A stretch of DNA of 64,000 bases, taken from NCBI GenBank assembly GCA_937943575.1, contig CALEAV010000001.1, positions 20,375 to 84,374 on the forward strand. The letters run 5' to 3'. Positions 29,358-51,992 of the stretch are shown piece after piece. The notes beneath the pieces were generated by a model. That model had not been told where the DNA came from and did no database searches. It saw only the letters and a list, made by a program, of their open reading frames with translations. Numbering within the stretch: the stretch's first letter is position 1; every line of letters starts with the position of its first letter. The DNA comes from an uncultured bacterium. Lineage in GTDB: Bacteria; Desulfobacterota; Desulfobaccia; Desulfobaccales; 0-14-0-80-60-11. The translations under genes and the position numbers were made by a program.

Positions 29358-29443
29358 TAGAGTCTGCACCCTTGACCCTTTCTTCCGGAAACCATCGCTT
29401 GCCGGAGGGCGCCAGGCCTGCGGCCTCCTCGCCTGCACCCGTC

Positions 29444-30382
29444 ATGCCAGCGGCCATCGTCGCCCAGGGAGTCTGCAAGTCCTTTCGCACCGGCTGGTTC
29501 AAGCCGCCGCAGGCGGTGTTGAAGGGCGTGGATCTGGAGGTGCCCCGGGGCGGGATTTTCGGCATCCTGGGCCCCAACGCCGCCGGCAAGACCACCCTGA
29601 TCTCCATTCTGGCCACCCTGCTTCTCCCCGACGCCGGCCGGGTGGAGGTCCTGGGGCTGGATGCGGTGCGCCAGGCCCATCTCCTGCGGCAGCGCATCAA
29701 TCTGGCCGCGGCCGGGGCCCAGTTCCTCTGGTGCCTCAGCGTGGAGGAGAACCTGGCCTTCTGCGGCCGCCTCTACGGGTTGGGGGGCAGGCGCCTCCGG
29801 CAGAAGGTGGCGGAGCTGCTGGAGCTCTTTGAGCTCACGGAGCACCGCCGGGTGACCTTCGACAACCTGTCCACCGGCCTGAAACAGCGGCTGGCCCTGG
29901 CCAAGACCCTCATCAACGACCCGGAGCTTCTTTTTTTGGATGAGCCCACCAGCGGCCTGGACCCGGAGATGGCCCGGCACTTGAGGGAGGAGATCGCCCG
30001 CCTCAACCGGGAGACCGGCCTCACCATCCTCCTCACCACCCACAACCTGCGGGAGGCGGAGCTCCTCTGCCACGAAGTGGCCTTCCTCCGGGAGGGGGTG
30101 CTGGCGGTCCACGGCAGCATCCCGGAGCTGCAGGCCCGCCTGGGGTTGGGGGACCGGGTGCGCCTGGCCTTTGCCGGGCCGCCCCCGCCCATGGATTACC
30201 GGGCCCTCCCGGGAGTGGTGTCCGCGGAGGTCTCCGACTCCCAGGTCACTTTGGTGGTGGACCGGGCCGACCTGCGGCTGGCGCCGCTGCTGGCGCTTCT
30301 GCAGCAGAACGGGTCCCCCCCGGCGTCGGTGCGCCTCAAGGAGGCGGACCTGGAAGACCTCTACCATGAGATTGCCCACTGA
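29444..30382 (+). CDS. ABC transporter ATP-binding protein (ABC-2 exporter type)
   Basis: GILGPNAAGKTT, LSTGLKQRLALA, LLFLDEPTSGLDP. I prefer ATG 29444 (MPAAIVAQGVCKSF) over ORF-track 29372. Confidence 0.85.
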   Translation: MPAAIVAQGVCKSFRTGWFKPPQAVLKGVDLEVPRGGIFGILGPNAAGKTTLISILATLLLPDAGRVEVLGLDAVRQAHLLRQRINLAAAGAQFLWCLSVEENLAFCGRLYGLGGRRLRQKVAELLELFELTEHRRVTFDNLSTGLKQRLALAKTLINDPELLFLDEPTSGLDPEMARHLREEIARLNRETGLTILLTTHNLREAELLCHEVAFLREGVLAVHGSIPELQARLGLGDRVRLAFAGPPPPMDYRALPGVVSAEVSDSQVTLVVDRADLRLAPLLALLQQNGSPPASVRLKEADLEDLYHEIAH

Positions 30383-31160
30383 ATGGCACCGGCTCTGGGC
30401 CTTTGCGGCCCGCAGCCTCATCGTCAACCGGCGCAACGTCTTCGCCGTCTTTGAGATGCTCTTCTGGCCCGCCGTGGCCATCCTGTCGGTGGGGCTGCTC
30501 ACCCGCTTCCTCCACCTGGACGCCGATACGGTGAGCTTCATCCTCATCGGTGCGGTGTCCATGAACACCATCCAGATCGCCCAGCTGGACCTGTCCTACT
30601 CCCTCCTCTACGACGTCTGGTCCCGCAGTCTGAAACACGCCTTCATCGCCCCGGTGCGCCTGGCGCATCTGATCCTGGGGGCCGGCCTGGTGGGCCTGAT
30701 GCGGGGGTTTTTCATCTTTGTGGTCATGGGGGTGGTGAGCCAGATCCTCTTCGGCATGGAGCTGGGGCGACCGGGGGTGACGGGCCTGGTGCTTTTCCTT
30801 GCCGGGCTCTTTCTCAACGCCGCCATCATCGGCATGCTGGTGCTCCTTTTGGTGCTGCGCTTCGGGCACCGGGCCGAGGTGGCGGCCTGGGCCTTCTCCT
30901 ACCTCGTCTTTCTCATCTGCGGGCTGTACTACCCGGTCACCGTGCTCCCTCAGGGGGTGCAACAGGTGGCCTGGCTGCTGCCGCTCACCCATTTTCTGGA
31001 CTATTTCCGCCAGTTTTACGGCTTTCCCGCCTCTTCGGCGCACCCGCTGCTCTACGGCTTCAGCCAGAGCCTGCTTTATCTGGCTTTAAGTTATCTGGGG
31101 CTTGGGCTGGTGCTCCATCGGGCCCGCTCCCGGGGCACCTTGCTGAAGCTGTCCTCGTGA
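30366..31160 (+). CDS. ABC-2 type transporter permease
   Basis: ATG 30366 overlaps the ATPase gene end. Six hydrophobic segments. The N-terminus MRLPTEWHRLWAFAARSLIVNRRNVFAVFEMLFWP is typical of ABC-2 permeases. Confidence 0.75.
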   Translation: MRLPTEWHRLWAFAARSLIVNRRNVFAVFEMLFWPAVAILSVGLLTRFLHLDADTVSFILIGAVSMNTIQIAQLDLSYSLLYDVWSRSLKHAFIAPVRLAHLILGAGLVGLMRGFFIFVVMGVVSQILFGMELGRPGVTGLVLFLAGLFLNAAIIGMLVLLLVLRFGHRAEVAAWAFSYLVFLICGLYYPVTVLPQGVQQVAWLLPLTHFLDYFRQFYGFPASSAHPLLYGFSQSLLYLALSYLGLGLVLHRARSRGTLLKLSS

Positions 31161-31278
31161 AAAAATCCGGGAAGGGGGCAAAGGGGTCACCCCTTCCCCT
31201 CCCCGGACCCTCTCCCTCCTTATCCTTGTCATTCCCCGGAATTTATGGCACAGTGGAGCATTCCGGGATGATCCGGCG

Positions 31279-32082
31279 ATGATCGGCGTCTTCGATTCCG
31301 GCTTCGGGGGGTTGGTGGTGCTGCGGGAATTCCTGCGGCTCCTGCCCCGGTATGATTACCTCTACCTGGGGGACAACGCCCGCATCCCCTACGGCACCCG
31401 CTCCGACCGGGTGGTCTACCGCTTCACCGAGCAGGCGGTGGACTTCCTTTTCGCCCAGGGCTGCGAGCTCATCATCCTGGCCTGCCACACCGCCTCGGCC
31501 AAGGCCCTGCGCACCATCCAGCAGCGCTATCTCCCGGCCCGCCACCCCCAGCGCCGGGTCCTGGGGGTCCTCATCCCCACGGTGGAGGAGGCCCTGGCCC
31601 TCTCCCGCCGGCGGCGTATCGGGGTCATCGCCACCGAAGGCACCGTCACCTCCCGCTCCTTTGAGCTGGAGCTCCACAAGCTGGACCCGCACGTCCAGGT
31701 GTATCAGCAGGCCTGCCCCCTGCTTGTGCCCCTCATTGAGGAGGGGGAGCAGGACTGGGAGGGCACCCGCCTCATCCTTCGGCGTTACCTGGCCCCCCTC
31801 CGGGCCGCTCTGGTGGACACCCTGATTCTGGGCTGCACCCACTACTCCATCCTCAAGGAGACCATCCAGGCGGAGATGGGGCCGGGGGTGCAGCTGGTGT
31901 GCTCCGGGCAGGTGTCGGCGGTGAAGCTGGTGGATTATCTCCGGCGCCACCCCGAGATCGAGGCCCGCCTCAGCCGCGGGGGCTCCCGCCGCTACCTCAC
32001 CACCGACCTCACCCCCCGCTTTGCCCGGCTGGCGGGCCTGTTCATGGGGGAGCCGGTGGCGGCGGAAGTGGTGGAGCTGTAG
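31279..32082 (+). CDS. murI: glutamate racemase
   Basis: MIGVFDSGFGGLVVLRE, YLGDNARIPYG, ILACHTASA, LGCTHY. Confidence 0.9.
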   Translation: MIGVFDSGFGGLVVLREFLRLLPRYDYLYLGDNARIPYGTRSDRVVYRFTEQAVDFLFAQGCELIILACHTASAKALRTIQQRYLPARHPQRRVLGVLIPTVEEALALSRRRRIGVIATEGTVTSRSFELELHKLDPHVQVYQQACPLLVPLIEEGEQDWEGTRLILRRYLAPLRAALVDTLILGCTHYSILKETIQAEMGPGVQLVCSGQVSAVKLVDYLRRHPEIEARLSRGGSRRYLTTDLTPRFARLAGLFMGEPVAAEVVEL

Positions 32083-32648
32083 CCGGCGGCCCGTCGGCTG
32101 GCGATGGTAACCCAGGACCACCGAGGCCTGAACCCGGCGGGGGCTGAGGTTCCAGCTGCCGCTGACTGGCCTTCCCGGCTCCCTCGCCGGCCGGAAGCCA
32201 TGCCCCCCAGGGAAGGTGTGGCCCGGGCGGCGGCCCGGCCGCTGCCCACCCGGACCGGCCCCGCCGGGGGATGGCGGGGGCGCAGCGGGGACTCCGGCCC
32301 CTGGCGCCGCCCGCGGGCCTTACATGAGCCTGGCGGATAAGAACCACCTCCCCTGGCGGCCCATGACCGCCACAGGATCGCCACCCGCTGTCAGCCCCCG
32401 GAACTTGAGGCCTGCCGCCATCTCCCGGGCCACTGCCGCCCGGCTCAAGTAGGGGGCATGCCGACAATCGGCCGGCATGACGCCGCGATGCGCCTGGGGC
32501 CCGAGGTTGACCATCTCCCGGGGGGCCTCCTGGCAGGCGGGTGTCAGCGGTCTTGGTTCCCCTGCACCTCCTGATGGGAGGGAGGCTTCCCTGATGTGCC
32601 GGCCAGCGGCTGGGGATGGGGTGAACCGCCTCCCCCCCGGTCATGGTC

Positions 32649-32993
32649 TCATTTCAGGCGGGCGCCACACTGGGGGCAGAAGGTGAAGGCCGCCTCCTGC
32701 CTGCTGCCGCACTGGGGGCAGAACTGAAGGTCAGGGTAGGGGGAGGCGGGGGGGGACGGCCGGCTCTCCGGCGAAGTGAGGGGGGCGATGAGGTCCTGGC
32801 GCAGCTCCTTTATGGGCTCCACATACTCGGAGCCGGCCTGGCGCACCTGCTGCACCAGCTCCTCGCTCAGCCGCCGGGCCTTGGCCACCAGGCGGCCGGC
32901 CTTGGCGGCGTATTCCATCATCTTCTCCGGCCCGAAGAGGATGAGGGTGAGGACCGCCAGGACCAGGAGTTCCTCAAAGCTGATGCCGAACAT
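32649..32993 (-). CDS. TatB/TatA-family translocase subunit fused to a C-terminal zinc ribbon
   Basis: MFGISFEELLVLAVLTLILFGPEKM (Tat TM plus hinge FGP) followed by an amphipathic helix. The C-terminus reads CPQCGSRQEAAFTFCPQCGARLK. Confidence 0.65.
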   Translation of the reverse strand: MFGISFEELLVLAVLTLILFGPEKMMEYAAKAGRLVAKARRLSEELVQQVRQAGSEYVEPIKELRQDLIAPLTSPESRPSPPASPYPDLQFCPQCGSRQEAAFTFCPQCGARLK

Positions 32994-33008
32994 GACCGGG
33001 GCGCACCC

Positions 33009-33278
33009 TCAGGCCTTGAGCTTGTGGCCGCAATGGGGGCAGAAGGCAAAATCCCCGCTCACCGGCTTCTGGCAGCCGGGGCAGAGGGGCGCCTGGGGCT
33101 GGGCGGCGGGGGGGGCTTCCTCCGCCTTGGTGAGCTGGTCGGCGTCATCGTGGGCCTTTTTGAAGCTCTTGATGGCCCGGCCGATGCTCTCCCCCAGCTC
33201 CGGCAGACGCCGGGGCCCGAAGAGGATGAGCACGATGAGCAGAATGATGAGGATAGGACCCCAATTGTAGCCGAACAT
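33009..33278 (-). CDS. tatA: TatA-family translocase subunit fused to a C-terminal zinc ribbon
   Basis: ATG 33278 gives MFGYNWGPILIILLIVLILFGPRRLPELGESIGRAIKSFKKA (canonical TatA). The C-terminus reads CPGCQKPVSGDFAFCPHCGHKLKA. Confidence 0.7.
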   Translation of the reverse strand: MFGYNWGPILIILLIVLILFGPRRLPELGESIGRAIKSFKKAHDDADQLTKAEEAPPAAQPQAPLCPGCQKPVSGDFAFCPHCGHKLKA

Positions 33279-33358
33279 GGCTGACCTCTTGGTGGCGGGA
33301 TGAGTTAGTGTTACTATATCAGCAAACCCCCTCCGGGAGCAAGGTCGCAAGGTGGCAC

Positions 33359-33895
33359 ATGAAGGACTGGAACGTGGTGGTCACCAGCCAGATGGGTGAG
33401 GAGATGCGGCTGCTCCGGGAACTGGCCGACCTGGGGGAGTTTCACCCCAGTGGCTTCAGGGAGGTGCTCATCGGCCGGGTGCCGGACCCGGACGGATTCC
33501 TGGAGACACTGCGGCAGCGCTGGCAGGACCAGCCCTTCTTCTCCCGGCTCCTCAGCACCGCCACGCCGGTGCGGAAAATCTTCCCTTTCACCCTGGAAAA
33601 TCTCAGAGAGCGCCTGCATCAGGAGGCGTTGGCCTTGGTGCCGGAGCTGGCAGGCAGGGCCTTCTATGTCCGGGTCAAGCGCCGGGGCCATAAGGGGGAA
33701 ATCCACAGCCAGGAGGTGGAGCAGGACCTGGACCGCCATCTCCTGGAGGCTCTGGCCGCCCGGGGCACCCCCGGCCGCATCGACTTCAAGGAGCCGGAGG
33801 CCGTCCTGCTGGTGGAGCTCCTCCACAACCAGTGCGGCCTCACCCTCATCACCCGGGAGATGCGGGAAAAATACCCCTTCATCAAGGTGAAGTAA
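33359..33895 (+). CDS. THUMP-domain protein (predicted RNA-binding)
   Basis: ATG 33359 gives MKDWNVVVTSQMGEEMRLLRELADLGEF...FYVRVKRRGHKGEIHSQEVEQDL. The pattern is recalled from small stand-alone THUMP proteins. Confidence 0.5.
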   Translation: MKDWNVVVTSQMGEEMRLLRELADLGEFHPSGFREVLIGRVPDPDGFLETLRQRWQDQPFFSRLLSTATPVRKIFPFTLENLRERLHQEALALVPELAGRAFYVRVKRRGHKGEIHSQEVEQDLDRHLLEALAARGTPGRIDFKEPEAVLLVELLHNQCGLTLITREMREKYPFIKVK

Positions 33896-33999
33896 TCCCC
33901 CGCGGCCCCGGCTTTCCCCGCCACCCGGGCAAAGGGGAGGGGTGGCAACCGAAATTCCGGAGGTGACCTCTGCACCTACACCGCTGGCTGACGGCCCTG

Positions 34000-34788
34000 G
34001 TGGCCCTGCCGCTGCTGCTGCTCATTCTGCTCAAGGGGGGGCCGTGGCTGTTTCTTTTGCTGGCGGCCGTGGTCTGCTCCCTGGGGCTCTGGGAGCTCGG
34101 GGCCCTGCTCCTCCCTGCCTCCGGGGTGGGGCCGCGGCTGGGGGCGGCGGCCCTGGGCCTGCTCCTGTTAGCGGGCTTCGCCCTGGCCCCCGGCGGGTCC
34201 CTGGCGGGTCACGTGTGGCCCCTCATGGCCCTGGCGGGCTGCCTCTTCCTGCTTCTGTCGGGGTATCTCCTCACCTACGGCCGCTCGCCGGCCGCCCTCA
34301 GCGACATGGGCGCCACTGCCCTGGCCCTGCTGTATGTCCCCTTCCTGCTGGGGCATCTGGTGTGGCTGCGCTTCCTCCCCCAGGGGGAGTGGTGGCTGCT
34401 GTGGCTGCTGCTGGTCATCTTCGCCGGGGATACCGCCGCCTTCTACACCGGCCGCACCCTGGGCCGGCACAAGCTGGCCCCCCGGGTGAGCCCCGGCAAG
34501 ACCTGGGAGGGCACCCTGGGGGGGGTGGCGGCCAGCGTGGCGGCGGGCCTGGTCCTGGGGGCCACGTTCCTGCCCCAGGTGGCCTTCGGCCGGCTTTTGC
34601 TCCTGTCCCTGATTTTGGGGTGGGTGGGGGTGCTGGGGGACCTGTTTGAGTCCATGCTCAAGCGTCTCGCCCAGGTGAAGGACGCCTCCGGGCTTTTGCC
34701 CGGCCATGGCGGTCTCCTGGACCGCCTGGACAGCCTGGTCTTTGCCGGGCCGGTGGTGCTCTATTTCCGCCTGCTGTTTTACCCGTGA
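34000..34788 (+). CDS. cdsA: phosphatidate cytidylyltransferase
   Basis: Polytopic membrane protein. SPGKTWEG and SMLKR..VKD.SGLLPGHGGLLDRLDS form the CdsA signature. The start is uncertain (GTG 34000; the frame is open from 33967). Confidence 0.85.
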   Translation: MALPLLLLILLKGGPWLFLLLAAVVCSLGLWELGALLLPASGVGPRLGAAALGLLLLAGFALAPGGSLAGHVWPLMALAGCLFLLLSGYLLTYGRSPAALSDMGATALALLYVPFLLGHLVWLRFLPQGEWWLLWLLLVIFAGDTAAFYTGRTLGRHKLAPRVSPGKTWEGTLGGVAASVAAGLVLGATFLPQVAFGRLLLLSLILGWVGVLGDLFESMLKRLAQVKDASGLLPGHGGLLDRLDSLVFAGPVVLYFRLLFYP

Positions 34789-35027
34789 GACCCTTGTGGC
34801 GGGAGAGGGGGTCAGGGTCGCGCACAGCCGCCGTTCCCATGGTGGGCCCGTGGTTGTCGCTGCCGACATGAGGGTATTTGAGGGTCAGCGGACGCAGCCC
34901 CCTGCCCCTTTTCCCACATCGTCCCCCCTCCCATCAAGAAGGCGGGGAGGGAGCGGAGTTTGAGGGGAGGTGGGGGCCGCCGGCCTCTTGGCCCTCCCCT
35001 CAGAACCCAGTCCAAGGAGGACACGAC

Positions 35028-35696
35028 ATGGAGGTGCGGGAAGCCCTTACCACCCGGCGCAGCATCCGGGCCTTTCTGGACACCCCGGTGCCCAGGGAGG
35101 TGATATGTGAGATCCTCGAGGCGGCCCGCTGGAGTCCTTCCTGGGGCAACACCCAGCCCTGGGAGCTGGCGGTGGTGGGCGGGGAGACCTGGCGCCGCCT
35201 GGCCGCCGCCCTGGTGGAGCGCTTCGCCCGCAAAGTTCCGCCCGCCCCCGATGTGCCCATGCCCGAGACCTTCCCGGATGAGTACCGTTCCCGCTACCTG
35301 GCCTGCGCCGCCGGGCTCTTCGGCACCATGGGCATCGCCCGGGAGGACAGGGAGAGGCGCTGGGCCCACCTGCTCAACATGACCCGGGCCTACGGCGCCC
35401 CGGTGGTGATATATGTCCTTTTCCGGGAGGACCTCCCGGTGCCTTACACCATGTTTGACCTGGGGGCCATCACCCATGCCATCACCCTGGCGGCCCACGC
35501 CCGGGGGCTGGGGACCTGCATCGAGGCCCAGCTGGCCCACTACCCCGACCTGGTGCGGCAGCACCTGGGGCTGGACCCCTCCCATCGCCTGGTGGTGGGC
35601 ATCGCTTTGGGCTACGCCGACCCCCATGCCCCGGCCAACGCCTTCCGCACCAGCCGGGAGCCCCTGGACACCTTTGTGCGCTTCGTTGACCTGTGA
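35028..35696 (+). CDS. nitroreductase family protein
   Basis: AAGGAGG lies upstream of ATG 35028. MEVREALTTRRSIRAFLDTPVPREV, SPSWGNTQPW. Confidence 0.85.
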   Translation: MEVREALTTRRSIRAFLDTPVPREVICEILEAARWSPSWGNTQPWELAVVGGETWRRLAAALVERFARKVPPAPDVPMPETFPDEYRSRYLACAAGLFGTMGIAREDRERRWAHLLNMTRAYGAPVVIYVLFREDLPVPYTMFDLGAITHAITLAAHARGLGTCIEAQLAHYPDLVRQHLGLDPSHRLVVGIALGYADPHAPANAFRTSREPLDTFVRFVDL

Positions 35697-35770
35697 GGGG
35701 CGGCGGGAGTCCGCCCGGGGCCGGGAAATCCCTTGACAGCGGCGGTTTTCCCGGCATAATAAAGAGTTGT

Positions 35771-35846
35771 GGGGATGTAGCTCAGCTGGAAGAGCGCCTG
35801 CTTCGCATGCAGGAGGTCAGGGGTTCAAATCCCCTCATCTCCACCA
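35771..35846 (+). tRNA. tRNA-Ala (anticodon CGC)
   Basis: GGGGATGTAGCTCAGCTGGAAGAGCGCCTGCTTCGCATGCAGGAGGTCAGGGGTTCAAATCCCCTCATCTCCACCA. The cloverleaf folds by hand: acceptor GGGGATG/CATCTCC including the G3:U70 Ala identity pair, anticodon loop TTCGCAT, T-loop TTCAAAT. CCA is encoded. Confidence 0.9.
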
Positions 35847-35897: not shown

Positions 35898-37087
35898 GCG
35901 CCCGGGCTGATGGAGGGTCGGGTCCGGCATCTGGGACCCGCCCTTCCGGCACACTTTCCTCAGCCTTTCCCCAGGCCCGGCGTCTGCCAGGGGCTCAGGA
36001 CCGAGCACCCGGGGCGCCGCCCATCCCCTCATTCCCCCCGGACGGGCGGCCTGCTGCCGGGAGGGGGGTGCCCGTTTCCTCGCCCCAGCCCACGCGCCGC
36101 CCCCATCCCCTTCCAGGAAGCCGGCCCGGCGCTGAATCCAATGACCGAAATTGCCCAAAAGCGGCCCGGGCAACCTGAGTTCAAAAATCGGCAGGAGGTG
36201 CAGGAGCGGAAAACGGTGGCGCTCTTAACAAGGACACCGGCAACCGGCAGGGGCGGGCCGCAAAAAGCCGACGAACTCAGCCCCTGGCCGGCCGGGGCCA
36301 AGCAGCTCGCCCCAGACTATATGACGCCTCACCAAAATGCGCTATACTCTCTTCCGTGAGTTGACCCATGGAAAAGGGCTGAGAGTGCGGCGCGTGGTGA
36401 CGCCAGGCAGGAAGAAACCTTGACTATGTGGTCCGGGGCGGGCACTTCCGGGCCACGGCAGGCACGAAGGGCCCGGGTCATTCCGGCCTCGGCCCGGGGT
36501 CCGGTTTTGCCGGTAGTGGTTCGCCTAGGCGGCCCAAGCCGTCACCATTCCTCCCAGTGGCGCTTCCCCTTTCCGGCGGCGCGGCTGCCGGGCCTTCGGC
36601 CCCGTCCCCGGGCTGGCCGTGGCCGGGACCGGGATACACCTCAGGACGCCCCGGCTTCCCCCCACCATCCCCATCACCCCGACCTTCCCAAACCCCTGAA
36701 TGTCATCCCAGGGAACCTGACGGGGCCCAGAGGCCGGCAAGCCACCGCCTGGGGAGTCAAAGGCTGCCGGCTGACAATTTCTTTGGCGCCCACCCCCGCC
36801 TCCTGTCCCAGCCAGATGGAGATTCGCGCACCTGTCGTCATCACCAGCCGGGACAGAAGCCGCAGCGGCATCCGGCCTAGCAGATTCCGCCCTGCATTCC
36901 GGCAGGCACCGGGAGCCTCCCCGCCTCCTGAACCTCCCCTGTGCCGGCAAACCACTGGCTGCTTCGGCCATATTGTTTGCCAATCACAACACCGACCCGG
37001 ATGGCTGAAAAAAAAATTGTTTTCAGAAAATTGGATGCAAGACAGAAATAATTCAGAAGAGCAACTCTCTGGTTAAAGAGGAATAAT

Positions 37088-39037: not shown

Positions 39038-41821
39038 ATGAAGGAGTATTTAACCACACCCACCTTTGTCATCGGTTTGGGGGGTATCGGTCAGAAAGTC
39101 ACCTTCCTTCTGGCGGAGCGGTTTGAGAATTCCCGCTGGCGGGTGGTCCCCCCCACCATCCGCATCCGGTCCTTCGACACCGCGATGATGGAATCCTATA
39201 AGCGTGATGACGTTGAGATTCCGGTGTCCAAATTTCGGCGTTTCACCCGCCTGGGCCAATTCGATGGAGACCAGGTCATTCAGCACCTGCATGTCTATCC
39301 GGAAATCCAGGATTGGTGGGATTATCAATACACCATCGGCTTTATAGGGGAAGGGGCGAAGTCAGAACGTCCCGTGGGGCGCCTGGTGTTTTTCCGCAAC
39401 CTCGATCAAATCCATCAGGTGCTGCTGGATGATTTCAAAGCGCCCTTGGCCGATGATCTCCAGACGCAATTGATTAAGGTAGGGTTGGGACAGGTGAGTC
39501 GTCACCCCCTCGTCTATATCGTCGGGTCCCTGGCCGGGGGGACCTGCTCCGGCATGCTGATAGACATGGCCATTCTGGTGCGCTGGCTGCTCGTCAAGTT
39601 GGGGTATGAAAGCGGCAGCATCAACATCACCGCTCTGCTGGGTCTGGAGTCAGTGATCAACGTGGCGACGCAAAGTGGCAACGACCAGATTGCCAGACGG
39701 CGTCGTCTCAATGTGAACGCCGCCTTGCGGGAAATCGACTTTCTCCAGGGAGGACAGGAAAATTTCACCATAAATTATCCCCAGCCCCTCTCGCGCATTG
39801 AGCCGGTCCGTCCCCTATTCAATCAAGTTTATTTATTTACCTCCCGCAGAATGGGGGGATTTTTTTACCAAAATCAGTGGGACATCCTCAGTCGGGTCGC
39901 CCACTTCATCTTTGGCCAGATCGCCTCCAAAACCGGGCAGGAGGCGCGGGCCATCATGGATAATGTGGGGAGCTATTTCAATCCCAATGAAAGTACCGTC
40001 AGCGGCGGCCTCAAGGCCATCTATGCCTCCTTTGGGGTGGAGTGGCTGGAAGTTCCCAAAAAAAATCTCCTGGCAGCCTGGTGCCAGAAGCATGCCGATC
40101 TGTTGGGGAACCTGGCAGTGGAAATCGACTGGACGAGGGAACCCAAGGAAAACCTCCTGCGCAAATTTAAGGAACTCATTCCTCCCAAGCTGCATGGCTA
40201 TCGCCAGTCGCTGGCGATCTTGGAATCAGGCCCCCAGGGGATCTTGGCCGCTCCAGGGATGGGTGCTCTGGCCCCCAAACTGGAGGCCATTCAGGGAGCG
40301 CAGAACAAAACGCAGCTGATGGCTGCCCTCCACGATTTTGAGAGTGAGCTGCCCCCGCTGCTGACAAAAATCCTCCGGCGAGAAGTGGCCCTGGCCGGGG
40401 ACCCCTCCTTTGAGGATGCCTGGCTGCTGGAGGCCATACAAACCCTCTGCCGGGATCGAGGCTTCCGCCTGGGGGGAGCCAGAAGGGTTCTGCAAGAAGC
40501 GGCCCGCTACATCCGAAGCCTGACCAGTGTGTCCGAGCTGTCCCTCTCTTCTGTGAAAGAAGTCGTCAGACAATCTACAGGCTTTTTTGGAAGAGTGAGA
40601 GACCCCGGGCCGGCGTTGGAATGGGCCAAGGCCAAGACATTCCAGACCGCCAGACAGATTCTCCGCAATGAGATGGGGCTACGTTTTGATGCCCTGGCCA
40701 CCAAGATGGAGGAATGCGCCAACGGCCTGCAGCGCCTGCAGGAGAAGATCCGGGACCTCACCCGGCACATGCGCACCTTGCAAGCAACCGGGGATACCAT
40801 CCCCCCGGAAACCTACCTTCTGAACCCCAACGATATGCAAACCATGCTGGATGAGGCTCCGGAGGAAGTGGCCCGGCTGGGGGCCGATGAGATCGCCGAG
40901 CGGGTGGCCGGGGAGCTCACTTTGACCTTGTTGAGAGCCCAGGACACGGGGTTTTTGGAGAATAATCTCCGCTACTGGATAGAATCCGCCCTGGAAAAGG
41001 CCATCGAAACCCGAATACAACCGCCCAGAGACAGAGTGAAGCGCATTTGTCACCGCATGACCCAATGTGAGCCTATGTGCTATTTTATCGATAGAGGCCC
41101 TGAATTTAACGAAATCATGAGAAATCATCATCCTACAGATCTCAAGATTGTCCTCACCGGTGGGGACAATCAGGATCAGGATGACTTGAGAAAATGGGCC
41201 TTAGAGGAAAATCAAAAAGGGAAAGGAAATACCTACCAGATATTTGCCAATGACGAATTTCTGCGGGATGATATTTTGTATATTACCTGCGGCTGGCCTT
41301 TATGGCTGGTGGATGAGGTGCGTTCGGGGGAAACTCTGCTGGAGCAGACGAAGAAAGATGATATTAAGCGTTACCATAATTCCTTTATTTTGGGGAGGCA
41401 GATTCCGGCCAGCCGGGAGCACCAGATCAGGCCCCTGGAGGAGAGCGACGCCCAGACGTGGTTCGGCATTGCGCTGGCCCTGCGGGATATTGACTTCGGG
41501 GTGGGGGAAATCCATTTTAAGCCAGCGCCTTTCCCGGGCCTGATTCCCATTGAGGCGCCGGCTCTGGGGGACTGCCTGGAAAAAGCCTACCAGCTTTTTC
41601 GTCAGCAGGGCTTGGCCCATGCCTACAAAACCTATGTTCGCCGCGAACTGGAGAGGGACAGGGGTCTCTTCAAAAGCCGCTTAGAGGAGGGGCTGGCCCA
41701 CCGGGAGGCAGCCCTGCTGGGAGCCTTCGAGGGCGGCCAGATAACCGCCGATGAGAAGAAGAGACTGTCCACCTTTTATCGCCTTGCCCGGGAATATGCC
41801 AGGAGGATTGTGATCCTATGA
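39038..41821 (+). CDS. giant tubulin/FtsZ-superfamily GTPase-like protein (Tubulin_2 / FtsZl1-like), 927 aa
   Basis: AGGAGG lies 9 nt before ATG 39038. T1-like FVIGLGGIGQKV (39074-39097), T3-like IGEGAKSERPVGR (39347-39382), T4 / tubulin-signature-like VGSLAGGTCSGM (39533-39553), all in the canonical order. The long helical C-terminal two-thirds has no motif I recognise. Confidence 0.7.
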   Translation: MKEYLTTPTFVIGLGGIGQKVTFLLAERFENSRWRVVPPTIRIRSFDTAMMESYKRDDVEIPVSKFRRFTRLGQFDGDQVIQHLHVYPEIQDWWDYQYTIGFIGEGAKSERPVGRLVFFRNLDQIHQVLLDDFKAPLADDLQTQLIKVGLGQVSRHPLVYIVGSLAGGTCSGMLIDMAILVRWLLVKLGYESGSINITALLGLESVINVATQSGNDQIARRRRLNVNAALREIDFLQGGQENFTINYPQPLSRIEPVRPLFNQVYLFTSRRMGGFFYQNQWDILSRVAHFIFGQIASKTGQEARAIMDNVGSYFNPNESTVSGGLKAIYASFGVEWLEVPKKNLLAAWCQKHADLLGNLAVEIDWTREPKENLLRKFKELIPPKLHGYRQSLAILESGPQGILAAPGMGALAPKLEAIQGAQNKTQLMAALHDFESELPPLLTKILRREVALAGDPSFEDAWLLEAIQTLCRDRGFRLGGARRVLQEAARYIRSLTSVSELSLSSVKEVVRQSTGFFGRVRDPGPALEWAKAKTFQTARQILRNEMGLRFDALATKMEECANGLQRLQEKIRDLTRHMRTLQATGDTIPPETYLLNPNDMQTMLDEAPEEVARLGADEIAERVAGELTLTLLRAQDTGFLENNLRYWIESALEKAIETRIQPPRDRVKRICHRMTQCEPMCYFIDRGPEFNEIMRNHHPTDLKIVLTGGDNQDQDDLRKWALEENQKGKGNTYQIFANDEFLRDDILYITCGWPLWLVDEVRSGETLLEQTKKDDIKRYHNSFILGRQIPASREHQIRPLEESDAQTWFGIALALRDIDFGVGEIHFKPAPFPGLIPIEAPALGDCLEKAYQLFRQQGLAHAYKTYVRRELERDRGLFKSRLEEGLAHREAALLGAFEGGQITADEKKRLSTFYRLAREYARRIVIL

Positions 41822-43335
41822 ACCTCAGGGTTCTACCGGGAATTGTCTGGGCCCTCGATGAACCGGCATATAATTATGTGAAGAATTGGTTGGTCACCCT
41901 GCCCCCAAATGCCAGTGGGGTCTTTGCCGCGGCCTCCAGCTGGAACGAGTTCATTGAGATCATTGACCATTATCGGAAACAGGAGTTCGATGAAACGCTG
42001 CTTCAGGCCGGTCTCAGTCTGGAGCCCCAACTGCAGGGGCGGCGGGTCAATGTAGTGGTAGTGGGCTCCCTCCCCGCTGAGGGCCGGACTGCCTGGGCCG
42101 AGGCAGAAGAAAAATTGCATTCCCTGAGCGGGGTTATCTCCCTGGAGCATTACCGGGTGCTCCTGCATCCTACCCTGCCCCCTATCGGGGCCGCTTCGGT
42201 GCAGAGAGATGTGGTTTTTTCCGGTCTTGACACCCTGCGGGTGCTCCCCTGGCTCCTCACCCGGGTGGTCAGCGGGGGCTTCACCTTGGGGGAGGGGGAA
42301 TTTTCCCACCACTTCTCCCAGCTTCTGGACGTCTTGTTGTTGGCGGAAAGAGACGGGGGAAGGGCCCCGGGATATCTAGTGCACTCTTTCTTTCAGTCCC
42401 AACCCCAGCCTCGTCATGTCCGGTTGGCGGGGTTTCCCCGGCTTTCTCTGGGGCACCTGCTCACAGAGATGGCAGCCTTTTTGGCTCAGGCCATGTTGCA
42501 GCGTGCCTATCAGCGGCCCTATGAGGAGACCCGGCCTGCCATTCAGGCATTGGAAAAGCAGCTGGCAGGGCTGGTGGGGGAGTTTCTGAGAGGGGAGCGA
42601 ACCGCCACGCAGGTGGAGGATCACTTTTTCAGGTTGCGTGCGTTTCCAAATCTGTCGACCTCGGCGATCTTGCGTGAGGTTCCGGAAATCCTGCACCGGC
42701 AGACCCTCCGCCTCCGCCAGGACGCAATCATGATTGCTCCACCCGACTCATGGTGGACCAGACTGTGGCGAAGAATTCTGGCCTTTTTCGGCCGGAATCA
42801 GCCTGCGGACAGGGACCTGCCGGACCGGGTCCAGAGGGATTACCTGGTCAAGAGGTTTACCCGCACCATTGAAGTGATCAAGGAAGTAACCTCGGAGGTG
42901 CAAGCGGAGCCCAACACAGTCTCCCTACCCGATGATTTCATCAAGGATTGGGCAGATGAGATAAATGTTTTCGTCCGACGGGGCCTCCAAGAAGGGTGGG
43001 GACGAAGTGAGCTCAAAAACCACTTGAAAATAAAGATGGAGCGCTACCTCCAGGAGAATTTTTTCCATGCCCTTCTCCACTGGGATCTTAAGGATGAGCG
43101 CGTGCGGGAGGTGGCCAGGGCGTTGGACGAGGGAAACCTCCTGCGCTTCAGTGCCCCTTTGATCGGGGGGCTCACGGTCTCCCCGCAGGCCGTGGTCACC
43201 TCCCTCAATTTGGGGGAGCAGATCCCTTATCAGACACACAAAGTTCCCTGCGCCACCTTGTCCTTTTACCCGGGCTGGCGGCCATTGTTGGTGGGTGCCA
43301 GCGAAGCTGTCCCCTTGGAACACATCAGTTTATAA
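41818..43335 (+). CDS. hypothetical protein, translationally coupled; possibly a nucleotide-loop-degenerate paralogue of the tubulin-like protein
   Basis: ATGA overlap with the upstream stop. IVWALDEPAYNYV and RRVNVVVVGSLPAEGRTAW align by eye with the FVIGLGGIGQKVT and LVYIVGSLAGGTCSGM loops of the upstream protein, but the glycines are lost. No P-loop. Confidence 0.6.
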   Translation: MNLRVLPGIVWALDEPAYNYVKNWLVTLPPNASGVFAAASSWNEFIEIIDHYRKQEFDETLLQAGLSLEPQLQGRRVNVVVVGSLPAEGRTAWAEAEEKLHSLSGVISLEHYRVLLHPTLPPIGAASVQRDVVFSGLDTLRVLPWLLTRVVSGGFTLGEGEFSHHFSQLLDVLLLAERDGGRAPGYLVHSFFQSQPQPRHVRLAGFPRLSLGHLLTEMAAFLAQAMLQRAYQRPYEETRPAIQALEKQLAGLVGEFLRGERTATQVEDHFFRLRAFPNLSTSAILREVPEILHRQTLRLRQDAIMIAPPDSWWTRLWRRILAFFGRNQPADRDLPDRVQRDYLVKRFTRTIEVIKEVTSEVQAEPNTVSLPDDFIKDWADEINVFVRRGLQEGWGRSELKNHLKIKMERYLQENFFHALLHWDLKDERVREVARALDEGNLLRFSAPLIGGLTVSPQAVVTSLNLGEQIPYQTHKVPCATLSFYPGWRPLLVGASEAVPLEHISL

Positions 43336-45180: not shown

Positions 45181-45939
45181 ATGCGGTGGCGCAGAAGAGA
45201 TGAAGGAGAGAATCCGGCCTGGCCGGGTCTGGTGGATCTGTTTGCCTTCACCCTGGTTTTCGTTTTGCTTCTGTGGTTTGGCAGCGATCTGAAGGGCGAA
45301 AAAGAAAAAATAAACGAAAAAATAAAGAAATTAGAAGAAGATAACTCGCACCTCAAAGTGGAAAAAGATCAATTGGAAAAGGAATTCGGCAAACTCAAAG
45401 ATATCATCGGAGGGAAAGGATTAAAGGAACTTAAAAATATTTATGAAATCATTAAAGTCAAACTGCCAATGGATTATAGAATAGTGATGGATGAGGAGGC
45501 CATCGAGATCCAGATAAAAGGTGACCCCCCCATTTATTTCAAAACCGGGGATTACCAGTTAAGCAAACAGGACCAGGAGCGTTTAAGATCCCTGGCCCCC
45601 ATCATCCTGGACACAGTTCAGGGGAAGCCGCTTTATGTTCTCATCAATGGGACGGCGGACCCCAGATTTCTGCCGGACCGGGGTTTCCCTCCCCACAACA
45701 ATGTTGAACTGTCCGCCCTGCGTTCGGCCACCGTGGCCGACACCCTGGAAAAGGCCGCCCTTGGGCTGGGCAAATATCTGCGGATTGTGGGCTTGGGGGT
45801 TATCGGGGAAGAAGCCCCTCCGGGGGTGGACCCGGAGCCGCATTACCAGCAGTATCGCACCATCAACCTGGTCATCAAAGTGGATGTGGAAAAATTGCGC
45901 TTTCTGCCGGCTCTGGAATTAAAACAGCCAGGTCATTGA
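45181..45939 (+). CDS. MotB/ZorB-like protein: N-terminal TM with conserved Asp, coiled-coil linker, OmpA-like peptidoglycan-binding domain
   Basis: WPGLVDLFAFTLVFVLLLWF (Asp codon 45235-45237) resembles the MotB/TolR/ExbD plug-TM. A K/E-rich linker follows. OmpA_C-like YFKTGDYQLS...VLINGTADP...NNVELSALRSATVADTL...IVGLGVIGEE...YRTINLVI at about 45525-45885. Confidence 0.75.
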   Translation: MRWRRRDEGENPAWPGLVDLFAFTLVFVLLLWFGSDLKGEKEKINEKIKKLEEDNSHLKVEKDQLEKEFGKLKDIIGGKGLKELKNIYEIIKVKLPMDYRIVMDEEAIEIQIKGDPPIYFKTGDYQLSKQDQERLRSLAPIILDTVQGKPLYVLINGTADPRFLPDRGFPPHNNVELSALRSATVADTLEKAALGLGKYLRIVGLGVIGEEAPPGVDPEPHYQQYRTINLVIKVDVEKLRFLPALELKQPGH

Positions 45940-46763
45940 TGAGAAGCCTGGTCAAAAGCCTCCAGACCTCCGTTCTGCGCCTCAAGGAATGGTGGTCCAG
46001 TCTGGCTTCGGGGGGGAGATTGTTCCCAGACCGGCGGACCTTGCACAGGGATTCTCGGGAGTGGCAGGAGCGGGTGAGGGAGTTGGTCAACAGCCGGCAA
46101 GCCCTGGAGGACAGATTGGCCGAGGCCAGTATGGCGGCTCGGGCAGCCGGGGTGCCGCAGCCGGAAGAGGTTGGCCTCCTGAAGCAGGCGAAACATGAAA
46201 TTCAAAAATCCTATGACCGGACCCTCATCCAAAAGTACCAGGCGATCAGTCAGGCCTTCGCTATCCTCAGTCCGGGAAAAAAAGGGAGCCCTCCGGAGTC
46301 ACTTCAAAATCTGATAAAGGAATATACTTTCCGCATTCAACAAATAATACAGGATTACGAAATAATCAGCAACAGGCTTCAGCTTGTCATTAACCTTCTC
46401 CATCAATCTCTGCAGCAAAAGCCTTGGGCAACTGCATTATCACACCGGTTGCTCTTGGGTCATCCTGAAATATATCAGGAGTTGCTAAAGATAGAGGAAT
46501 TACGATGGGAAAATAGGCAAATCGCTGTAAAGAGAATGCAAAACAGCTTCCAAAGGCGACTGCATATCGGAAAAATGTGGTTAAATATCTTGGAAAACCA
46601 TATAAGTAGTTATGCTTACCGCCTAGGAATGAGGACCATAAAAGAATTAAGCACAAGTTTCTCAGAACATGAAGATAAGCTAAATTATCTTATAAATCTT
46701 CACAGACGCTTGGATACTCCCCTTCTGAATTGGAACAGACAGTCGCTTCAACGGCTAAATTAA
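45939..46763 (+). CDS. hypothetical alpha-helical protein (last gene of the operon)
   Basis: ATG 45939 overlaps the upstream TGA (TGATG). 274 aa with no TM or recognisable motif. The 3' half is AT-rich (26/60 G+C at 46441-46500). Confidence 0.6.
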   Translation: MRSLVKSLQTSVLRLKEWWSSLASGGRLFPDRRTLHRDSREWQERVRELVNSRQALEDRLAEASMAARAAGVPQPEEVGLLKQAKHEIQKSYDRTLIQKYQAISQAFAILSPGKKGSPPESLQNLIKEYTFRIQQIIQDYEIISNRLQLVINLLHQSLQQKPWATALSHRLLLGHPEIYQELLKIEELRWENRQIAVKRMQNSFQRRLHIGKMWLNILENHISSYAYRLGMRTIKELSTSFSEHEDKLNYLINLHRRLDTPLLNWNRQSLQRLN

Positions 46764-50257: not shown

Positions 50258-51778
50258 ATGGCATCGTCACAGCGCTTCGGCACCGCCCGGGACACCTTTT
50301 TCACCGGCATGCCGGAAAATCTTCTGAAGCATGTCTGCCCGCCCACCTTCGGCGGCGGGCCCCTGGACCCGGTCCCTGCAGACCGGGAACTGCGCCGGGA
50401 CCTGCTGGTGAGCCACGATCTGGACCTGCCCCCGGCGGTGGCCGCCAGGCTGGGGAGGGACAAACTGCGGATGTGGATCATCGAAAACGATGATCCGGAC
50501 GCCCCGGGGTCGGCACCCCGGAGGACCTACCCCTCCCCCCTCATCCGTCTGGTCCGGGGGCAGGTGGTGCACGCCCGGGTGGGAGGCAAGTCGGGCACCC
50601 ACACCGTCCACTGGCACGGGATTGAGCCCGTGCCCACCAGCGACGGGGTGGGCAAGCACTCCTTTGAGATCTCCGGCAATTTCACCTATCAGTTCCAGGC
50701 CAATGAGGCCGGCACCTATTTTTATCACTGCCACAAAAATACCACCCTGCACTTCCAGATGGGGCTGTGGGGCGGGCTCATTGTGGATCCCCCCAACCCC
50801 AATATCGCCGGGGACAACAACCTGGGGCTGACCTTCACCGCCCTGACGCCGCCCTACGCCACCCTGGGACCGGGGTATGCCGCCGGGCTGCGCAGTTCCT
50901 TCGGGCTTTCCCCCGGGAACGCCATCCCCTACCACCGGGAGCGCCTCTGGGCGGTGGATTCCCTGGATTCCCGCTGGCACCTGGCCAACCCCAACCACAA
51001 CCTCAACATGCAGGAGTGCCGCCCGGACGATCCGGCCGGGGCGGAGACCTTTTACCGCATCGGCACCGGGGACTTCGATCTCAATGACTTCCGGCCGGAT
51101 GTCTTCACGGTGAGCGGGGTGGTCCTGAACGCCGGCTCCGGACCGCCCTTCACCGGGGTCATTGACCACCCGGACATTGCCATCAGTGCCACTGCCGGGG
51201 AGCTGGTGCTGCTGCGCTATATCAACGCCAGCTACACCATCCAGGAGCTCAGGCTGCCGGTGCCGGCCAGGGTCATCGCCTGGGACGGCCATCCCCTGGG
51301 ACTGCCCGGCTATCACGAATTCGGCAGCCCCTATGTGGTGCCGGCTAACACCCCCATCCGCACCACCAGCGCCCGGCGCCCGGATCTCATTATTGATACC
51401 CGGGGGATGTCTGCCTTTCAGGGGGTGGCCACCCTGCGCCTGTATGACTGGATCAAGGGGGTGACCTCGGCGGGGCTTCTGGCCGAGATCCAGATCCCCA
51501 TCAGCATCGCCGGCGGCCCGGGACCCCAGCCGGCGCCCTTCACGGTCAGCGCCTCGTTCAATCGCCGCAACCGGAGACTGAATGTGGCGACCAATCCGGC
51601 CCAGCCCGCTGCCACCCTGCGGGTCTTTGCGGCGGACCACAGCCGGATCGGCGGCGACTTCCTCCTGGACCGGCGGGGCCGGTTCAGCGGCCGCCTGCCG
51701 GGGACGGCCATTCCCGCCTATGTGCGGGTCATCACGGGCCAGGGGGACTTCGGTCCCTTCCCGGTGGCGGTCAGATAG
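50258..51778 (+). CDS. multicopper-oxidase-like protein carrying only L1/L2-type motifs, no visible signal peptide
   Basis: HTVHWHG (50600-50620) and GTYFYHCHKNTTLHFQMGLWGGLIV (HCH..H..M at 50726-50761). There are no C-terminal HxxHxH/HCH motifs. The N-terminus MASSQRFGTARDTFFTGMPENLLKH lacks a hydrophobic core. Confidence 0.8.
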   Translation: MASSQRFGTARDTFFTGMPENLLKHVCPPTFGGGPLDPVPADRELRRDLLVSHDLDLPPAVAARLGRDKLRMWIIENDDPDAPGSAPRRTYPSPLIRLVRGQVVHARVGGKSGTHTVHWHGIEPVPTSDGVGKHSFEISGNFTYQFQANEAGTYFYHCHKNTTLHFQMGLWGGLIVDPPNPNIAGDNNLGLTFTALTPPYATLGPGYAAGLRSSFGLSPGNAIPYHRERLWAVDSLDSRWHLANPNHNLNMQECRPDDPAGAETFYRIGTGDFDLNDFRPDVFTVSGVVLNAGSGPPFTGVIDHPDIAISATAGELVLLRYINASYTIQELRLPVPARVIAWDGHPLGLPGYHEFGSPYVVPANTPIRTTSARRPDLIIDTRGMSAFQGVATLRLYDWIKGVTSAGLLAEIQIPISIAGGPGPQPAPFTVSASFNRRNRRLNVATNPAQPAATLRVFAADHSRIGGDFLLDRRGRFSGRLPGTAIPAYVRVITGQGDFGPFPVAVR

Positions 51779-51992
51779 GGGCACAGGGGGAAGTCAGGGC
51801 GAACGCCGCCTCTGCCCCGGGGGGCGCCTGAGCCCGTGCCTGAAAGGAGAGGGGGCCAAGGGGCCATATCCTCCCAGCCCCCTCCCAGGGCGGCTGAAAC
51901 GGGTGCCAGACGGCGCCGGGAGGAGACCGGGGGTGCTCCTCCCCCGGCGACCATGCAATAAACAGCAGCCCCCTTTTTGAGATCCACAATCC

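Follow-up and report, generated by a model that had tools for sequence, protein, structure and literature searches.

An FtsZl1-family tubulin homologue encoded beside a candidate Zorya-like motor in a tRNA-adjacent island of an uncultured Desulfobaccales bacterium

The 64,000-nucleotide (nt) stretch of an uncultured Desulfobaccales genome analysed here (contig CALEAV010000001.1; hereafter the window) contains a compact cassette built around the gene for a 927-residue protein, which belongs to the FtsZl1 branch (Pfam PF13809, Tubulin_2) within the FtsZ/tubulin superfamily. The cassette encodes, in order, a vWA protein, the FtsZl1 protein, a 505-residue protein, a membrane protein resembling MotA, ExbB and ZorA, a smaller partner resembling MotB and ZorB, and a variable sixth product (Table 1). 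Packing of the genes is tight, neighbours overlapping by 4 nt or leaving 12–27 nt between them, and the cassette sits in a horizontally acquired genomic island adjoining a tRNA gene. A first-pass annotation of this DNA had described the central protein as a divergent cytoskeletal GTPase with three glycine-rich loops and a long extension. The open reading frame (ORF) that it delimited is exact, opening with an ATG that is preceded, 8–13 nt upstream, by an AGGAGG ribosome-binding site.

Table 1. Features of the cassette, the FtsZl1 protein and the left edge of the island, with positions in the window (aa, amino acids; TM, transmembrane; AF2, AlphaFold2)
Feature	Position	Strand	Basis
tRNA-Ala(CGC), left edge of low-GC island	35771..35846	+	ARAGORN, Rfam
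vWA protein, 640 aa	37088..39010	+	Pfam VWA (E 8e-13), hydrophobic segments
FtsZl1/Tubulin_2-family protein, 927 aa	39038..41821	+	ORF and translation, Pfam PF13809, AF2 model
T1 loop FVIGLGGIGQKV (G13, G15, G16, G18), aa 10-21	39065..39100	+	conservation in 169-member alignment
N-terminal FtsZ/tubulin-like nucleotide-binding region, aa 11-351	39068..40090	+	Pfam match extent, Foldseek
T2-like D47-T48 after strand S2	39176..39181	+	conservation and model
T3 loop IGEGAKSERPVGR (G106, A107, R111, G114, R115), aa 103-115	39344..39382	+	conservation
T4/tubulin-signature loop VGSLAGGTCSGM (S164, G167, G168, T169, G172), aa 162-173	39521..39556	+	conservation, hhalign
Asn309, end of H7-like helix	39962..39964	+	conservation and model
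Helical part of extension, aa 352-695	40091..41122	+	DSSP on model, 74% helix
Alpha/beta domain of extension, aa 696-840	41123..41557	+	secondary structure of model, 24% strand
C-terminal helical bundle, aa 841-927	41558..41818	+	84% helix in model
505-aa protein, no assigned family	41818..43335	+	ORF; start overlaps tubulin-like stop by 4 nt
MotA/ExbB/TolQ/ZorA-like membrane protein, 604 aa	43355..45169	+	TM prediction, AF2, Foldseek
MotB/ZorB-like protein, 252 aa	45181..45939	+	PADLOC, NCBIfam, Pfam, conserved motifs
275-aa helical protein, sixth gene	45936..46763	+	ORF

The FtsZl1 protein

The Pfam Tubulin_2 profile matches residues 11–351 of the protein over profile positions 2–349 of 356 (E-value 7e-38; 131.2 bits against a cut-off of 27), and likewise matches 34 of 34 full-length relatives of the subfamily. 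An AF2 model of the entire protein, built on 34 homologues, has a predicted local distance difference test score (pLDDT) of 87.6 and a predicted TM-score (pTM) of 0.78. When this model was compared with the Protein Data Bank (PDB) using Foldseek, the top 50 matches were all structures of CetZ, FtsZ or TubZ at a probability of 1.0, the best being CetZ2 (4b45; E-value 7e-6), with alignments of ~350 columns and target-normalised TM-scores of ~0.5; in a library of viral structures it matched phage FtsZ/tubulin homologues only. Structure prediction thereby upheld the FtsZ/tubulin-type fold that had been claimed from the loops. The kinship to solved structures of the superfamily is remote, with identities of 8–15% and root-mean-square deviations of 5–10 Å, and a search of all PDB sequences with the family profile returned no significant match for any part of the protein. 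Alignment of the family by hhalign with E. coli FtsZ paired the T4 segment only (FtsZ residues 95–120 with query residues 156–181) at a probability of 2.8%, and is uninformative on the T7 loop. In the predicted structure, the first ~350 residues form a tubulin-type nucleotide-binding domain with the T1–T4 loops intact, and the protein is likely to bind GTP.

Members of the superfamily are marked by the patterns GxGGxG in T1 and GxGAxxxPxxGR-like in T3, and by the PROSITE-type tubulin signature [SAG]GGTG[SA]G in T4. Residue conservation in the 927-aa protein was scored on an alignment of 169 diverse family members, and the values that follow refer to it. The T1 glycines are conserved at 97–98%, the five T3 residues listed in Table 1 at 94–100%, and in T4 Ser164, Gly167, Gly168 and Thr169 at 97–100% and Gly172 at 86%. 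Asp47 (98%) and Thr48 (84%), which follow strand E41-47 of the model, might be equivalent to the 'NTD' of the FtsZ T2 loop. T4 itself reads AGGTCSG and departs from the strict tubulin signature at a single residue, the fifth, where Cys170 stands in place of the Gly of 82% of the family. The three loops are present in the canonical order, as had been annotated, although the nucleotide coordinates originally given for them were off by 3–12 nt and their spacing is not canonical: T1 and T4 lie ~154 residues apart, as against ~86 in E. coli FtsZ, the ~70 extra residues being due to family-specific inserts. Given the Pfam score, the conservation across the family and the predicted FtsZ/CetZ/TubZ fold, these motifs are far beyond what chance would produce.

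The protein is not a new kind of GTPase but falls in an already catalogued family. It was described as FtsZl1 by Makarova and Koonin in 2010 (Biol Direct 5:33, PMC2875224), who reported that T6-H7 and the C-terminal domain could not be aligned, that a long coiled coil follows together with a C-terminal domain made of helices, and that the operons encode a vWA protein, OmpA-family proteins, kinases or a GTPase. NCBI names the homologues 'tubulin-like domain-containing protein' (also, sic, 'tubulin-like doman-containing protein'). The 927-aa protein shares with the published family an FtsZ-like domain at the N-terminus with T1–T4, inserts between T1 and T4, the lack of an alignable T6-H7 or C-terminal domain, a long extension of coiled coil and helices, a vWA gene as the next gene upstream, and an operon that includes an OmpA-family gene. 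It likewise shares with FtsZ, CetZ and TubZ (4b45, 4b46, 2r6r, 4dxd, 2xka) the Rossmann-like fold and the glycine-rich T1, T3 and T4 loops, but differs from them in lacking an NxDxxD T7 motif and an FtsZ_C domain, in the additional residues between T1 and T4, and in its 576-residue extension. A profile search of 1.84 billion representatives recovered 5,659 family clusters (50% identity) at E<=1e-3, of which only ~25 keep the full-length architecture seen here. This subfamily is phyletically patchy, occurring in Acidobacteriota, Eisenbacteria, Proteobacteria and Desulfobacterota, and is set apart from other FtsZl1 proteins by a specific C-terminal alpha/beta domain. Despite the size of the family, a search of the accessible literature turned up no experiments on it; in a 2023 phylogeny (PMC9871819) the Tubulin_2 proteins served only as an outgroup.

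The extension (aa 352–927) is 67% helical overall by DSSP on the AF2 model, and its helical part includes one single helix of 57 residues at aa 524–580 (nt 40607–40777). It had been described as helical and free of known motifs; the second part of this description stands, as no relatives were found in searches of Pfam, PDB sequences or the viral structure library, whereas the first is too simple in view of the alpha/beta domain at about aa 696–840. In the subfamily alignment, Asp744, Gly752-Trp753-Pro754 and Glu760 of that domain are invariant, and Arg743 and Asp745 nearly so (>=90%). A weak Pfam match to MLKL_N, a membrane-permeabilising four-helix bundle, at aa 554–620 occurred in only one of 34 members and was set aside as a chance result. 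The extension may dock onto the cytoplasmic tail of the vWA protein or that of the MotA-like protein, as had been suggested, the evidence being strict gene linkage.

Partner genes and the island

The vWA protein has a signal peptide, an exported vWA/MIDAS domain, one TM helix (aa 513–531) and a cytoplasmic tail of ~110 residues, and its MIDAS motifs, DxSGSM and LLTDG, are intact and conserved across loci. A 'choice-of-anchor X' domain (NCBIfam NF041940, E 4e-9) lies at aa 357–393, between the vWA domain and the TM helix. The gene for the 505-aa protein keeps its position in all subfamily loci, and the product found no relatives in Pfam, NCBIfam, PADLOC or PDB searches. Its segment 'VVVVGSLPAEGRT' resembles a T4 loop, and the protein was accordingly considered as a degenerate tubulin paralogue; this was rejected, with an hhalign probability of 1.9% against the family alignment.

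The 604-aa protein is predicted to have three TM helices followed by a helical tail of ~420 residues. Its N-terminal region (pLDDT 72–84) gave, among the top 50 Foldseek matches in the PDB, exclusively ExbB, MotA, TolQ, PomA and ZorA structures, at E-values of 0.05–0.4 and probabilities of 0.7–1.0; ZorA structures 8qyh, 8qyk, 8qyd and 8qyy were among them, with target-normalised TM-scores of ~0.5. Three of 15 homologues weakly matched Pfam MotA_ExbB, and Thr119 and Asn148 of the protein are conserved. The tail gave only generic coiled-coil matches against PDB sequences. The 252-aa protein combines a TM helix bearing an invariant Asp19 with a coiled-coil linker and an OmpA-like peptidoglycan-binding domain. 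It is matched weakly by the PADLOC ZorB1 model (E 8.7e-7, 26.7 bits) and by NCBIfam MotD (E 3e-6); the NCBIfam ZorB1 model scores only 21.8 bits against its cut-off of 400, and Pfam OmpA (E 8e-4) stays under its cut-off. Its motifs WPGLVDLFAF, with the invariant TM aspartate, and NGTADP..N.ELSALRA are conserved in 10 loci. By analogy with Zorya, the 604-aa and 252-aa proteins might form a peptidoglycan-anchored, ion-driven motor of the 5:2 type. The sixth gene is found only in closer relatives (L005, L007 and L090), and its 275-aa product has no family match in Pfam, NCBIfam or PADLOC.

The cassette differs in composition from its surroundings: its GC content is 56.9% as against 68.4% in the rest of the window, and that at third codon positions is 55–71% as against 86–91% in flanking genes. 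The segment from 35847 to ~48700 (~13 kb) ranges from 51 to 64% GC, compared with 65–73% in the flanks. The contig of a related Desulfobaccales metagenome-assembled genome (MAG; L091) is 86–88% identical to positions 29427–35846, and this homology ends exactly at the 3' end of the tRNA-Ala gene, beyond which the related MAG carries a two-component system instead of the cassette. This comparison sets the left edge of the island; the MAG contig ends inside the neighbouring gene before the right edge. The flanking proteins cluster with those of Desulfobaccales and Syntrophobacterales MAGs. No att-like direct repeats were found flanking the island, and the small ORFs at its edges gave no match to an integrase or any other Pfam family. 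Between the tRNA and the vWA gene, public assemblies call a 218-aa ORF (36420–37076), which is Arg/Pro-rich and has no family match; the island DNA there is probably non-coding and the call spurious.

Recurrence and genomic company of the cassette

A strictly ordered five-gene cassette recurs in 12 diverged loci. Its order is seen in L004–L010, L087–L090, L094 and L095, with tubulin-like proteins 30–70% identical, and the vWA gene is present in every subfamily locus but one (L090). Of 76 more distant FtsZl1 loci, from Nostocales, Thermoanaerobaculia and Clostridium, 65 have a vWA gene as the immediate upstream neighbour of the tubulin-like gene, and none has the MotA-like/MotB-like pair. Hence, the vWA-FtsZl1 pair is the core of the family and the motor a feature specific to the subfamily, which among the loci examined is the only one linked to such a pair. 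The closest relative on a long contig (L090:6641-14167; 60% identity) comprises the tubulin-like gene followed by genes for 502-, 598-, 247- and 263-aa proteins. Homologous cassettes are also found under archaeal MAG names (Methanomethylicaceae, Hadarchaeum), as in L094 (GCA_038893975.1) and for proteins P0208 and P0219; these carry genes for a peptidoglycan-binding protein of the OmpA type and for a ParE toxin-antitoxin pair, as well as fragments of transposases, and represent either mis-binned bacterial contigs or inter-domain transfer.

Most of these loci have genes associated with defence next to the cassette. The neighbours include: 1) Azaca ZacB and ZacC directly upstream (E 8e-157 and 0), together with an RmuC-like protein, in L004 of Luteitalea. 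2) A type III restriction-modification system, an integrase and an SNase nuclease in L006. 3) An LmuB-like SMC protein with a Metallophos protein, resembling Lamassu, and a nucleotidyltransferase in L005. 4) BREX PglZ and BrxL, and an SNase, in L088. 5) DEAD/MZB and UvrD helicases and an SNase in L087. 6) ResIII with RE_endonuc, UvrD and IrrE in L008. 7) A PD-(D/E)XK nuclease and an SF1 helicase-DUF559 nuclease in L009. 8) The ParE pair, a methyltransferase and the transposase fragments in L094. 9) An SF1 helicase in L095. Zorya and many other systems were reportedly discovered through neighbourhood patterns of this sort.

A gene with a staphylococcal-nuclease (SNase) domain adjoins the cassette in three independent loci (L006:17663-18463, minus strand; L087:18242-18637, plus strand; L088:7175-7783, plus strand), lying directly upstream of the vWA gene in L088; the window has no SNase gene. 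These SNases are possible accessory nuclease effectors. Downstream of the cassette in L089 (17054-20712), and on its strand, lie genes for a 630-aa protein with an FGE-sulfatase domain and for a beta-CASP/metallo-beta-lactamase nuclease; FGE-sulfatase domains are counted among the effector domains of conflict systems by Kaur et al. 2020 (PMC7159879).

Proposed function and competing explanations

Two known types of system offer points of comparison. In Zorya, a peptidoglycan-anchored ZorA5B2 proton motor relays phage invasion via a cytoplasmic tail of ~70 nm to soluble effectors (PMC11946911). The cassette resembles it in encoding a candidate MotA-family subunit, predicted to have three TM helices and to extend into the cytoplasm as a very long helical tail, and a candidate MotB-family partner that combines a TM aspartate with a peptidoglycan-binding domain, in having soluble partners in the operon, and in its residence in defence islands. 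It differs in that no PADLOC model of ZorA, ZorC, ZorD, ZorE, ZorF or ZorG finds a match in it, in the lack of a nuclease in its core, and in the identity of the partners, namely a membrane protein with a vWA domain, the tubulin homologue and two proteins of no known family. The second comparison is with the neighbourhoods combining tubulin, vWA and GTPase genes that Kaur, Burroughs, Iyer and Aravind proposed as conflict systems (2020, eLife 9:e52696). In these GAP1-N2 systems, too, membrane vWA proteins are encoded with a tubulin-domain protein that is extended at its C-terminus by a coiled coil or helices, but they have a TRAFAC GTPase and proteins with FNIII repeats as their defining components, are found in Firmicutes and Actinobacteria, and lack a MotAB-like pair; in the proteins of our cassette, Pfam and NCBIfam scans detected no P-loop GTPase or HSP70 family. 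In the original description of FtsZl1 (PMC2875224) the OmpA-family partner was read as porin-type and a stator-like motor was not recognised. We did not find a link between an FtsZl1 subfamily, a Zorya-like motor and defence genes described in the searchable literature.

We propose that the cassette encodes an envelope-anchored, ion-driven conflict or defence system with the tubulin homologue as its GTP-dependent assembly module in the cytoplasm, a reading that in our judgement has an even chance of being correct. The 604-aa and 252-aa proteins would form the Zorya-like motor, anchored in peptidoglycan and driven by ions, and the vWA protein would expose to the periplasm a domain for metal-dependent binding or sensing, and to the cytoplasm a short tail. 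Upon a signal from these envelope components, the FtsZl1 protein might self-assemble at the membrane as an oligomer or filament and, recruited or held there via its long extension, serve as a scaffold or effector. The cassette would then function in defence against phages or mobile elements rather than in cell division. Because of the genomic company of the cassette, a conflict role appears most likely as against one in division; the assembly, its coupling to the motor and the defence role itself are suggested by analogy with characterised systems. A more specific version, which we put forward tentatively and with less than even confidence, is that the cassette represents a previously unrecognised Zorya-like class of immune system, in which the motor and a periplasmic vWA sensor trigger GTP-dependent assembly of the tubulin homologue as amplifier or effector. 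If correct, this would be the first tubulin homologue with a function in immunity instead of division, segregation or shape, and the 15-year-old orphan family FtsZl1 would gain a testable role.

Several observations weigh against this proposal. The defence association is guilt by association over about a dozen loci, mostly MAG contigs, and comes with no background statistic. Purely housekeeping flanks are seen in the window and in L090, and only there. The latter has RadA directly upstream of its cassette and no vWA gene, which implies that at least one lineage either does without the vWA protein or encodes it at another site. In PADLOC no model matches the tubulin-like, vWA, 505-aa or 275-aa proteins, and at E<=0.1 the 604-aa protein is matched by none of its ZorA models. 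The structural match of this protein is weak in E-value, and its model as a whole is poor (pLDDT 55). No nuclease or other toxic effector is recognisable in the core cassette.

A further group of observations bears on filament formation. In FtsZ the T7 synergy loop contains NxDxxD, and in alpha-tubulin the corresponding residue is E254. The model of the 927-aa protein shows a 29-residue H7-like helix (aa 280–308), a loop (aa 309–328) and a strand (aa 329–338). Asn309, at the end of the helix, is 89% conserved and is a possible remnant of T7; a conserved acid was sought in aa 310–328, where no acidic residue reaches 50% conservation, in agreement with the earlier remark that no acidic T7 motif could be identified by eye. 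A Pfam scan of the protein and 34 members detected neither FtsZ_C nor Tubulin_C. It is therefore uncertain whether filaments form with a GTPase activity that assembly stimulates, and of the phrase 'divergent cytoskeletal GTPase' the FtsZ/tubulin fold can be retained, whereas 'cytoskeletal', in the sense of filament-forming, was an assumption made without a detectable FtsZ_C or Tubulin_C domain or T7 acids.

These features are compatible with an alternative in which the protein is a non-polymerising nucleotide switch, GTP toggling the conformation or dimerisation of the extension without any filament; it could be a variant of any of the other explanations and appears to us somewhat unlikely. 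Besides the missing T7 acid and C-terminal domain, it is favoured by the Cys for Gly substitution in the T4 signature of the subfamily and by the account of Makarova and Koonin (PMC2875224), who were unable to align T6-H7 and themselves raised the possibility that the family forms no filaments. The conservation of Asn309 at the T7 position speaks against it, as do the Foldseek alignments to FtsZ and CetZ, which run past the H7-like helix into the next strand. To our knowledge, moreover, every characterised member of the FtsZ/tubulin superfamily polymerises.

A different alternative dispenses with conflict altogether: FtsZl1 filaments, acting with the vWA and OmpA-family proteins, would deform the inner membrane in housekeeping membrane remodelling or vesicle biogenesis. 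This was the original proposal for FtsZl1, made from the same context of vWA, OmpA and membrane proteins (PMC2875224), and it accords with four of the six cassette proteins being, or interacting with, envelope components and with the housekeeping neighbours in the window and L090. We nevertheless consider it improbable, as the cassette is a compositionally foreign island adjoining a tRNA gene, the subfamily is rare (~25 clusters among 1.8 billion representatives) and patchy, and the setting of most loci amid restriction, BREX, Azaca, toxin-antitoxin and transposase genes would be unusual for a housekeeping function. Least probable, and by a good measure doubtful, is a role in surface adhesion or force transmission, in which an ion-driven motor of the MotAB/TolQR type would act together with a filament in the cytoplasm and an adhesin of the vWA kind, as do the Agl motor, MreB and the vWA adhesin CglB in the gliding machinery of Myxococcus: three parts do match (a motor, a cytoskeleton-family protein, and a vWA/MIDAS protein that is exported and carries a choice-of-anchor X domain), but a C-terminal TM helix fixes the vWA protein in the inner membrane, the cassette has no outer-membrane component, L090 lacks the vWA gene, no Glt or Agl homology was seen in family scans of the cassette proteins, and the island and defence-neighbourhood evidence also counts against it.

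As a divergent tubulin-fold GTPase is in itself already known, we regard the system-level setting as the more valuable point. A compact, transplantable cassette of ~9.7 kb connects a tubulin homologue with a motor of the Zorya type and with defence islands, and makes the function of a divergent tubulin directly testable.

Two features lie elsewhere in the window. Long overlapping ORFs, of 907 and 1242 aa on the minus strand and 787 and 1063 aa on the plus strand, occupy positions 51771–57540, and a Pfam scan of the two minus-strand frames gave no match. A bacterial 16S rRNA gene (Rfam SSU_rRNA_bacteria, 707 bits) runs off the end of the window, which retains its 5' half at 63241–64000.

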